26,142 nt of DNA from Promethearchaeota archaeon (GTDB lineage Archaea; Asgardarchaeota; Thorarchaeia; Thorarchaeales; Thorarchaeaceae). A model generated the notes under the pieces. It was not told the origin of the DNA and did no database searches. It saw only the letters and a program-made list of their open reading frames with translations. The DNA lies in NCBI GenBank assembly GCA_014728035.1, contig WJMJ01000060.1:1-26142 (forward strand), written 5' to 3'. Shown piece by piece: positions 3,699-4,708 of the stretch (the first letter of the stretch is position 1; each line of letters begins with the position of its first letter). A program made the position numbers and the translations under genes.

Positions 3699-3965
3699 GG
3701 AATTCCAAGTAACAGCCGGACGTGGTGAAGGTGCCTGGAAGAATGGCTCCACGATATCCGGATTTATCCGAACCTTCAGTCTTGCGTGTCTTCAAACTTG
3801 AAAGCTCCGCGTTTATCGACAGGAGCAGGTCTTAATCTTAAACCTTCAGACTTAAATCTTTCAAGTTTGTACGTAAATGGATTTCAAGTCCACATAGACA
3901 GGTATCAATATAACCCTATTGATTGGGGTCTTCCACATTCCTCCTTTTTACGTTACCAAAATTCC
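3699..3965 (-). ncRNA. candidate ~267-nt structured RNA downstream of the DIP1984-like gene
   Basis: The ends pair (GGAAUUUUGGUAAC / GUUACUUGGAAUUCC). Internal 12-bp stem CAAACUUGAAAG/CUUUCAAGUUUG (3793-3804 with 3858-3869), plus GCUCC/GGAGC, UGAAGGU/ACCUUCA and AUCAAUA/UAUUGAU. Periodic AAG units in between. Confidence 0.6.
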
Positions 3966-3969
3966 TTCT

Positions 3970-4101
3970 CTAAATATCCAATTTTCTTCCGAACAACTGT
4001 CTTATCTTTTCCTTCTTTACTTCCTCCGGAGATGGCTTCTCCAACTCTTTCTTCATCTCCGGAGTCAATCGACACAGTTCCAACCACCCATTATCTGTCA
4101 T
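3970..4101 (-). CDS. small protein ending RKLDI (43 aa from ATG; frame is open back to 4209)
   Basis: Hand translation MTDNGWLELCRLTPEMKKELEKPSPEEVKKEKIRQLFGRKLDI*. Confidence 0.5.
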   Translation of the reverse strand: MTDNGWLELCRLTPEMKKELEKPSPEEVKKEKIRQLFGRKLDI

Positions 4102-4201
4102 TAACTCGACGTTGCCTTTAGAGTATCTAAACACCAAATCACCAGTTTGTGGATCATCTGGTCTTTGAAAGACATTCGAATACCAAGAGGAATCTTTGAA
4201 G

Positions 4202-4708
4202 TCACTCGATCAAATCCTCGGTGGCGTTGATTACCTCCAGACGAGAATCAATCTCTTCATATAGTTCTTGCCATTCACGCAATTTGTCATTTCTTTCGGC
4301 TTCATCATAAAGCTGAATAATATTCACCTTCTGGTCAGGGGCAAATCTCATCGTGTGGGATCTGTTCTCGGCCGCACTCGTGTCGAGAGCAGTATATACT
4401 CTCTGCATTATTCTGGCCAATTTGCGCTTGATAACAAGAAATTCTGAAAGAGAGTGAGTCCTTCCTTTGATTGTCGCACTGACTTGCAAATTAGTTTTCT
4501 CGATCTGGCCCTTCAATTTCAGATATTCATTGGCCAAATCTTCGGAAGATTGCACGAGTTTCTTGACTTCCTCTTTCTGTTTCGCTTCGGTCTCAAAAGC
4601 AGGTTTTTCCGTGCTCAGTACCGATGCATATTTTGTGATATCTTCACAGTTCTTGTTGATTCTCTTCTCAAGCACCTTCAACTTTTTCAGACCCTCAATA
4701 ATCTTCAT
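4202..4708 (-). CDS. DIP1984-family (septicolysin-annotated) coiled-coil protein
   Basis: The pattern MKIIEGL..LK.LEKRI, IEKTN, SLSEFL, YDE.ER, IDSRLEVINATEDL and the ~168-aa length fit this family; SD AGGAGG. Confidence 0.7.
   Translation of the reverse strand: MKIIEGLKKLKVLEKRINKNCEDITKYASVLSTEKPAFETEAKQKEEVKKLVQSSEDLANEYLKLKGQIEKTNLQVSATIKGRTHSLSEFLVIKRKLARIMQRVYTALDTSAAENRSHTMRFAPDQKVNIIQLYDEAERNDKLREWQELYEEIDSRLEVINATEDLIE

Follow-up and report, generated by a model that had tools for sequence, protein, structure and literature searches.

The stretch of DNA analysed here (the window; 26,142 nt, contig WJMJ01000060.1) is an entire contig of a 4.33-Mb, 173-contig assembly of ~40% G+C (GCA_014728035.1, a Promethearchaeota archaeon), and it looks like a piece of a large phage. 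From 11 to 25 kb its minus strand bears 19 tRNA genes, and positions 5397-6005 encode a tail-sheath C-terminal domain. We describe a minus-strand unit of this window in which the gene of a 168-aa protein (4202..4708) is accompanied by a structured non-coding RNA of 267 nt (3699..3965), each present in the window's genome as a single copy. The order along the minus strand is a gene for an 89-aa protein, the 168-aa protein gene, a short open frame, the RNA, a 13-bp terminator-like hairpin that closes the unit (3656..3684), and the next gene. As set out below, the protein is predicted to have the DIP1984 fold, the RNA is genetically tied to its gene in related loci (numbered here with the prefix L), and the two probably form a ribonucleoprotein (RNP) together. 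All features of the unit are given on the minus strand.

The 168-aa protein is the conserved partner of the RNA. In hidden Markov model (HMM) comparisons it matches two curated profiles of the DIP1984/DUF6847 family over their full length, scoring 28.3 bits against NF038048 (cut-off 70) and 23.3 bits against PF20935 (cut-off 27), i.e. below both cut-offs; for some of its closer homologues the PF20935 match is already precomputed. An AlphaFold2 model built from 30 homologues reached a predicted local distance difference test score (pLDDT) of 92.9. When compared with the crystal structure of Corynebacterium diphtheriae DIP1984 (3KDQ), this model gave a Foldseek E of 6.3e-4, with a probability of 1.00 and TM scores of 0.58/0.64, and a VIA-align Z of 11.9 over 149/152 residues, the second-best entry reaching a Z of 7.9. 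Sequence identity to 3KDQ is 16-17%. Thus, the modelled protein shares the all-helical fold of this solved member, and the name DIP1984-like, which the first-pass annotation of this DNA had given to the gene, is justified at the level of the fold but not by the curated sequence cut-offs. A large protein collection holds 61 homologues of 167-211 aa. Searching the PDB by sequence returned only a chance coiled-coil match to ZorA (E 0.1), PADLOC gave no match, and Pfam gave none to HutP or TrpBP. We know of no function for the DIP1984/DUF6847 family. Our literature search found no paper mentioning DIP1984, DUF6847, PF20935, NF038048, RAGATH-27 or T5.085; “3KDQ” was found solely in papers on unrelated subjects, and “Septicolysin” solely in papers that annotate plasmids or genomes. 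For this family the literature describes no RNA partner so far.

The contigs of five homologues (82-53% identity) and one IMG/VR locus (39%) carry, after the gene, a conserved stretch of ~270-330 nt. Its conservation exceeds that of the genes on either side, and it is retained where the short frame is missing (L002-4 and L006) and where the downstream gene differs. The association holds from both directions. Firstly, a DNA pattern drawn from the RNA only (AAGANTAAGAC, 6-11 nt, GTCGATAAA) was searched in IMG/VR and metagenomes. In all of the RNA-first loci (L081, L090, L093, L094, L096, L097, L098 and L102), tblastn detects the protein gene on the strand of the RNA and upstream of it; beyond the closest relatives it places no other protein of the window near the RNA. 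Secondly, a profile of 30 aligned protein homologues led to 69 IMG/VR loci. Among all loci sampled by protein first, the RNA is found on the same strand in L001-L006, in L119-L122 and in 67/67 IMG/VR loci with enough flanking sequence. The latter comprise a close clade (at least 41% identity), in which 20/20 loci with downstream DNA available have the RNA directly 3' of the gene, and a distant clade (24-37% identity), in which 47/47 loci with enough flank have a related RNA detected by a second profile, one of them with its RNA match 1.6 kb downstream of the gene. Once iterated, the second profile matches members of the close clade with E values of 1e-8 to 1e-11, and the two RNA types are therefore homologous. 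Linkage also survives insertions of 0.2-1.75 kb between gene and RNA (window, L005 and L098), the RNA of L098 being separated from its gene by four genes and 1.75 kb. Together, these results show that the RNA is genetically tied to the DIP1984-like gene over protein identities from 82% to ~25%.

Other searches were negative. Patterns made of AAG units only (three AAG-N4 units, or AAG-N3-AAGAC) gave 74 matches in IMG/VR, all of them coding sequence or simple repeats and none homologous, and a pattern for the 3' domain gave no matches. In a genome contig collection the RNA-only pattern gave 12 matches, none of which was confirmed by nhmmer. The GenBank phage collection yielded nothing, either by blastn with this region of the window or by tblastn with two family proteins. 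Sub-threshold DIP1984-like genes were seen in 4/301 genomes of the host's phylum (L196-L199), followed downstream by short GAUUAAA-type repeats (by eye) and a T-arm-like GGUUCGA(A/C)UCC, with no match to the RNA profiles; these loci might represent the pair in a still more diverged form.

Folded on its own, the window's RNA has an energy of -75.5 kcal/mol as against -63.4 ± 4.5 kcal/mol for shuffled sequences (z -2.68) and is closed by a terminal helix, P1. We regard the RNA as real because of covariation across 31 homologues, over and above this moderate single-sequence energy. The structure was derived from the window and its first relatives and was counted on a 31-sequence alignment (A6, made with MAFFT, 45% mean identity); the RNA is ~300 positions long, and searches for it used nhmmer profiles. 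Taken as a whole, 78.6% of cells are paired, compared with 39-46% when partners are slid by 1-3 columns, and the covariation score is 0.432 compared with 0.11-0.16 for the slid versions, a value that none of 500 shuffles reached. Compensatory changes were found in six helices. P1 (3951..3965 with 3699..3714) consists of 8 bp, a bulged U on the 3' strand and 7 bp; 93.1% of the cells of its 15 pairs are paired and in 14 pairs both sides have changed. In the 3' domain (3716..3761), P5 (3761-3758 with 3719-3716; 98.4% paired, both sides changed in 3/4 pairs) encloses P6 (3753-3749 with 3725-3721; 81.3% paired), which in turn encloses P7 (3747-3745 with 3735-3733). The variable region contains P3 (3877..3893), a hairpin with a 5-bp stem and a 7-nt loop, CUUGAAA, that recurs on differing stems in the window, L006, L093, L140 and L142, the stems being judged from the alignment.

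Three pseudoknots complete the structure. MAFFT sets two of them, PK-A and PK-B, one or two bases out of register, and these were tested instead by comparing the pairing of each strand with its own partner and with partners swapped between sequences. PK-A is a long-range pseudoknot between GGAAGA (3929..3934) and UCUUCC (3737..3742) in the loop of P7. A duplex of 5-9 bp is possible in 31/31 sequences, cognate strands pair at -8.25 kcal/mol and non-cognate ones at -5.7 kcal/mol, none of 10000 partner permutations matches the cognate value, and the compensatory variants include AAUGAG/CUCAUU and ACGGAGG/UCUCCGU. PK-B is a 5' H-type pseudoknot (3904..3927) with two interleaved stems, CCC/GGG (3927-3925 with 3916-3914) and AUCAAU/AUUGAU (3923-3918 with 3909-3904). 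The first is mostly invariant, so that pair counts are uninformative for it; the second pairs at -4.85 kcal/mol with its cognate and at -1.24 kcal/mol with non-cognate partners, and no permutation out of 10000 is as good. PK-C, the central pseudoknot (3804..3831), pairs GAC with GUC (3831-3829 with 3820-3818) and is interleaved with the hairpin P4 (3826-3822 with 3808-3804), whose loop contains the near-invariant GUCGAUAAA (3820-3812). It is paired in 31/31 sequences in five variants, GAC/GUC, CAC/GUG, CUC/GAG, GUC/GAU and AUC/GAU; covariation of P4 was judged partly by eye, its 3' strand being poorly aligned by MAFFT. P1 and PK-A link the 5' domain to the 3' domain over the variable middle. 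Comparative analysis thus shows the RNA to be a closed fold with three pseudoknots.

Several elements that the first-pass annotation had read from this single sequence are borne out by the comparison: the paired ends of 3965-3699, now resolved as 15 bp with a bulge; the runs of AAG, with the spacings given below; and the 13-bp hairpin that follows the RNA, at 3684-3656. Its perfect 12-bp helix (3869-3858 with 3804-3793) is present in the window, at -15.8 kcal/mol, but is not a feature of the family: it is absent from 30/30 relatives, cognate and non-cognate strands pair equally well (-3.2 and -3.2 kcal/mol), and 4100 of 10000 permutations are as good. The region is non-coding, as that annotation had supposed, since no frame on either strand is open across the element in 13 homologues, the homologous RNAs differ by indels of any length and a 7-nt period is incompatible with codons; coding readings of 3699-3965, stop read-through included, were rejected. 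An RNA without function, either a decayed gene or a chance structure, would fit a single-sequence z of only -2.68 and the gene remnant that adjoins the RNA. This is scarcely credible given that the RNA is more conserved than its flanking genes and has homologues over protein identities from 82% to ~25%, and the compensatory changes in six helices contradict it.

The RNA contains 12 AAG triplets, nine of which fall into two arrays (5 + 4). Array 1 (3829..3860) has five AAG at spacings of 7, 7, 7 and 6 nt, and array 2 (3774..3799) has four at spacings of 7, 9 and 7 nt. Five pairs of AAG are exactly 7 nt apart; among 5000 dinucleotide-preserving shuffles, none had more than 3 such pairs. Across the 31 sequences, the AAG triplets of the two arrays are invariant or at least 90% conserved, as is the U two bases ahead of the following AAG. 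In array 1 this applies to most bases of the triplets at RNA positions 108, 115, 129 and 135, with lower conservation of the third triplet (RNA position 122). Some units are replaced by ACG (as in L134, L135 and L121) or CAGG, with the period unchanged, where members are divergent or rich in G+C. This conservation at a mean identity of 45%, together with the periodicity, indicates that the heptads are under selection. They join no conserved helix except for the final GAC, through which PK-C joins the end of array 1 to the next hairpin loop, and, lacking a conserved partner, the arrays are probably unpaired. Periodic triplets had earlier been likened to the arrays by which TRAP binds RNA. A protein-binding array is a reasonable reading; TRAP, whose period is 5-6 nt, fits less well than HutP, for which two arrays and a 7-nt period are the better parallel.

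The same HutP-like layout raises the question of whether the RNA acts in cis, as a 3' stabiliser of the transcript or as a protein-responsive attenuator of read-through into downstream genes or tRNAs, in the manner of TRAP or HutP. The RNA lies on the same strand as the gene and usually directly 3' of it, the window has a terminator behind it, and a tRNA gene starts 7-50 nt past its 3' end in several relatives (L096, L127, L133, L139, L142 and L134/L135). We nonetheless consider a cis-acting element unlikely. The RNA is a self-contained domain with a covarying P1, and we saw no alternative pairing with the terminator that is conserved; the terminator is missing from many relatives; the RNA can lie up to 1.75 kb from the gene (L098) or upstream of it; and 270-330 nt with three pseudoknots far exceed the needs of known attenuators.

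We favour instead, with a probability of roughly 55%, a two-part RNP in which the heptad RNA would be a stable, trans-acting molecule and the DIP1984-fold protein an oligomer reading its AAG units. The RNA would be made on the transcript of the protein gene, and its 3' end would be set by the terminator at 3684-3656 or, in many relatives, by processing of the tRNA a few bases downstream. As shown by the covariation, P1 and the three pseudoknots pack the RNA into a compact core, which would leave the two AAG-N4 arrays exposed and probably unpaired. By analogy with hexameric HutP on two XAG-N4 arrays, each subunit of the protein oligomer might then read one AAG unit. Finally, and more speculatively, the particle may act in trans during infection, probably on translation or on tRNA-directed host defences, a role proposed in view of its home in phage tRNA arrays and the tRNAs embedded in relatives of the RNA.

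A number of observations weigh against this proposal. The window's own 12-bp helix could sequester parts of both AAG arrays, and in single-sequence folding the arrays have an unpaired probability of 0.45, compared with 0.40 for the rest of the RNA. The family has a median isoelectric point of 8.5 but the window's protein is not basic (6.8), and the DIP1984 fold is not known to bind RNA. Five loci of the distant clade (L153, L158, L163, L166 and L180) have the RNA match just upstream of the gene, so that the gene order is not fixed, and linkage by itself is also compatible with a cis-acting element.

The neighbourhoods of the pair bear on what it may do. Same-strand tRNAs occur within a few kb in 19/30 close-clade loci. 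In the distant clade (L144-L191, IMG/VR), a complete tRNA scoring above the Rfam threshold lies inside the RNA itself in 12/20 scanned loci, between the 5' GAGAUAAAAA element and the heptad arrays (for example at L155:3095-3167 and L161:3112-3185), and it is this position that P3 occupies in the window. Neighbours are otherwise diverse, including sheath-like fragments (window), DUF2201 and gyrase B genes (L119/L120), and DNA ligase and ferritin genes (a 218-kb contig). Such surroundings suggest another reading, in which the RNA would titrate a host factor as a decoy or sponge, for instance a regulator that binds RNA or a defence nuclease that cuts tRNA. The AAG heptads, together with the variable hairpin or the embedded tRNA, would be the bait, and the protein would only stabilise, process or load the RNA. 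The position within or beside same-strand phage tRNA arrays in most loci, the full tRNA in those 12/20 RNAs and the 7-nt loop of the variable hairpin, which is the size of an anticodon loop, all speak for a decoy, as does one cellular locus among HicAB, MNT/HepT and Cas3 genes. A decoy alone leaves unexplained why this particular small protein accompanies the RNA at every locus, and the CUUGAAA loop is conserved rather than varied in the close clade; moreover, we know of no nuclease that recognises AAG-N4 arrays. We therefore hold a decoy to be possible but doubtful.

The cellular locus just mentioned (L121/L122, a GCA_964426245.1 contig, 1-6513) is rich in G+C. HicA/HicB, MNT/HepT and a Cas3 gene flank the pair there, and a SAM riboswitch lies at L121:1441-1549; the setting is a defence or toxin-antitoxin island, not a phage tRNA array. 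The first-pass annotation had also proposed a pair like the type III toxin-antitoxin systems; in such a pair the protein would be the toxin and the RNA its antitoxin. As in ToxIN, CptIN and TenpIN, a protein gene is joined to a repeat-bearing non-coding RNA in a two-part module on mobile elements, and in this one locus the module sits inside an island of toxin-antitoxin and CRISPR genes. The resemblance does not extend further. Type III antitoxins are built of tandem repeats of ~34-36 nt, whereas the units here are of 7 nt only, with no tandem units of ~36 nt; their RNA precedes the toxin gene behind a terminator, whereas here most loci, the window included, have it after the gene; and their toxin is a ToxN/AbiQ-type endoribonuclease, whereas the protein here has no such match in PADLOC or Pfam and its predicted DIP1984 fold is all-helical. 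A type III-like pair is, in our judgement, very improbable, and this part of the earlier proposal is not supported.

Phage T5 appears to carry a version of the pair behind T5.085, judging from its sequence. The 30-sequence protein profile matches T5.085 (E 1e-4 within the T5 genome), which is the only route that led to T5, and this gene is followed by an unannotated gap of 363 nt (AY543070, 43142-43504, minus strand; L195). The gap contains AAAG units spaced 7-8 nt apart, folds into a closed structure (z -4.64) and both begins and ends with motifs that by eye are like those of the family (…AAAUCGGUAGACG … GGCUGUUUAUCGGUUUA…). The family's RNA profiles gave no match in the gap, and neither PF20935 nor RF03100, the latter searched up to E 10, has a match in T5.

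As for the remaining features of the locus, the gene of the 89-aa basic protein (5033-4764) directly precedes the 168-aa protein gene; it was rejected as a core partner, being present only in the closest relatives. The short frame between gene and RNA is an open frame of 79 codons (3973..4209) without ATG, GTG or TTG before 4137, where the 55-aa open reading frame (ORF) of the ORF list begins at a TTG. It is absent from L002-4 and L006. In L098 the RNA is preceded by a 182-aa gene, and to the C-terminal half of this gene the frame bears a weak resemblance (E 4e-4), its FGRKLDI end paralleling ...STRKIEI there. The frame is probably what is left of genes that had been inserted ahead of the RNA, behind the protein gene, and lies outside the core pair. 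A +1 frameshift fusing it to the 168-aa gene was also considered, and was dropped because homologues stand alone at ~168 aa.

The hairpin at 3684-3656 has a weak T tract and a stem that covaries in L002, L005 and L006, and it is the single terminator-like hairpin found by a terminator scan on the minus strand from 5400 to 3650. Given this, the locus is consistent with one transcript shared with the amber module, as the first-pass annotation had it. Immediately 3' of the hairpin, TAATTTATAATTATGTTATAAA (3630-3655, minus strand) is near-invariant in L002-L006 and L093 and is kept although the downstream gene, at 3615-3016 in the window (ORF list), varies among loci; it could serve as a phage promoter or as a signal of another kind. 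In the closest relatives, a tRNA with a CUA anticodon, labelled “tRNA-Pyl” by ARAGORN, lies upstream of the pair by ~3 kb (L002:749-820) and 1.6 kb (L005:628-702), and the amber-tRNA neighbourhood of the window is thus syntenic. Elsewhere in this phage fragment of ~38% G+C, a block at 6000-7100 has 58-60% G+C and is flanked by a sheath N-terminal-like peptide (7476-7153) and the protein with the sheath C-terminal domain (6005-5397).

If the pair is a particle, it would be a new and common viral RNP, and it would provide the first functional handle on DIP1984/DUF6847, a family of no known function for which a crystal structure has been available since 2009. Its RNA would also join the few classes of large pseudoknotted RNA known from phages. 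The position in tRNA arrays and the embedded tRNAs bear on why large phages carry sets of tRNAs and on how they cope with defences that target tRNA, and the probable copy behind T5.085 makes the pair directly testable in a standard laboratory system.

The gene-RNA pair matches no described RNA family or system. With Rfam 15, only tRNAs reach the gathering score in the window, and matches in the region at E up to 10 are sub-threshold and driven by the terminator; in 28 related loci (8 + 20) the RNA likewise matches no family. RAGATH-27 (RF03100, an 86-position model), which like this RNA is an orphan candidate RNA of unknown function, has no match in the window up to E 10, none in 8 loci up to E 1 and none at the gathering score in 20 distant loci. 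On the protein side, the nearest relatives are DIP1984/DUF6847 (PF20935, NF038048, 3KDQ), with which the 168-aa protein has in common its length class, its predicted fold and weak full-length HMM matches.

Among RNAs read by ring-shaped oligomers, the closest parallel is the hut terminator RNA of B. subtilis, bound by HutP. HutP forms a hexamer of D3 symmetry and binds one array on each of its two faces; each array consists of three XAG with 4-nt sequence-independent spacers, and a linker joins the two (PMC2425495). The RNA described here shares the two XAG arrays and their 7-nt period, with 5 + 4 AAG units, and like the targets of HutP and TRAP it bears arrays of NAG triplets at regular short spacing. 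It differs in having more units per array, joined by a pseudoknotted hairpin, and in that its arrays lie inside a closed 267-nt RNA that contains three pseudoknots rather than in an attenuator with alternative hairpins. The protein, with its helical DIP1984 fold, belongs to neither the HutP nor the TRAP family, and no ligand or regulated operon is evident.

In overall design, the pair resembles the particles of tmRNA with SmpB and of Y RNA with Ro/Rsr, both also phage-borne, in which a small protein is combined with a structured RNA. The shared traits are an RNA of ~300 nt, rich in pseudoknots and with paired ends, a single small partner protein that is kept with it and, in relatives of this RNA, a tRNA or tRNA-like module. 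A tmRNA proper was excluded, as ARAGORN and Rfam report none; the RNA has no tag reading frame and no acceptor or T-arm at its closing helix, and its partner is neither SmpB nor Ro. A far more tentative view, which we think would probably prove too ambitious, is that the pair represents a widespread, undescribed RNP of phage tRNA arrays, of other mobile DNA and probably of T5. In such a particle, the knotted core would present a swappable module resembling a tRNA or an anticodon arm and the protein would coat the AAG arrays, so as to act on the translation apparatus or to neutralise tRNA-directed defences, with a standing comparable to that of tmRNA-SmpB or Ro-Y RNA.

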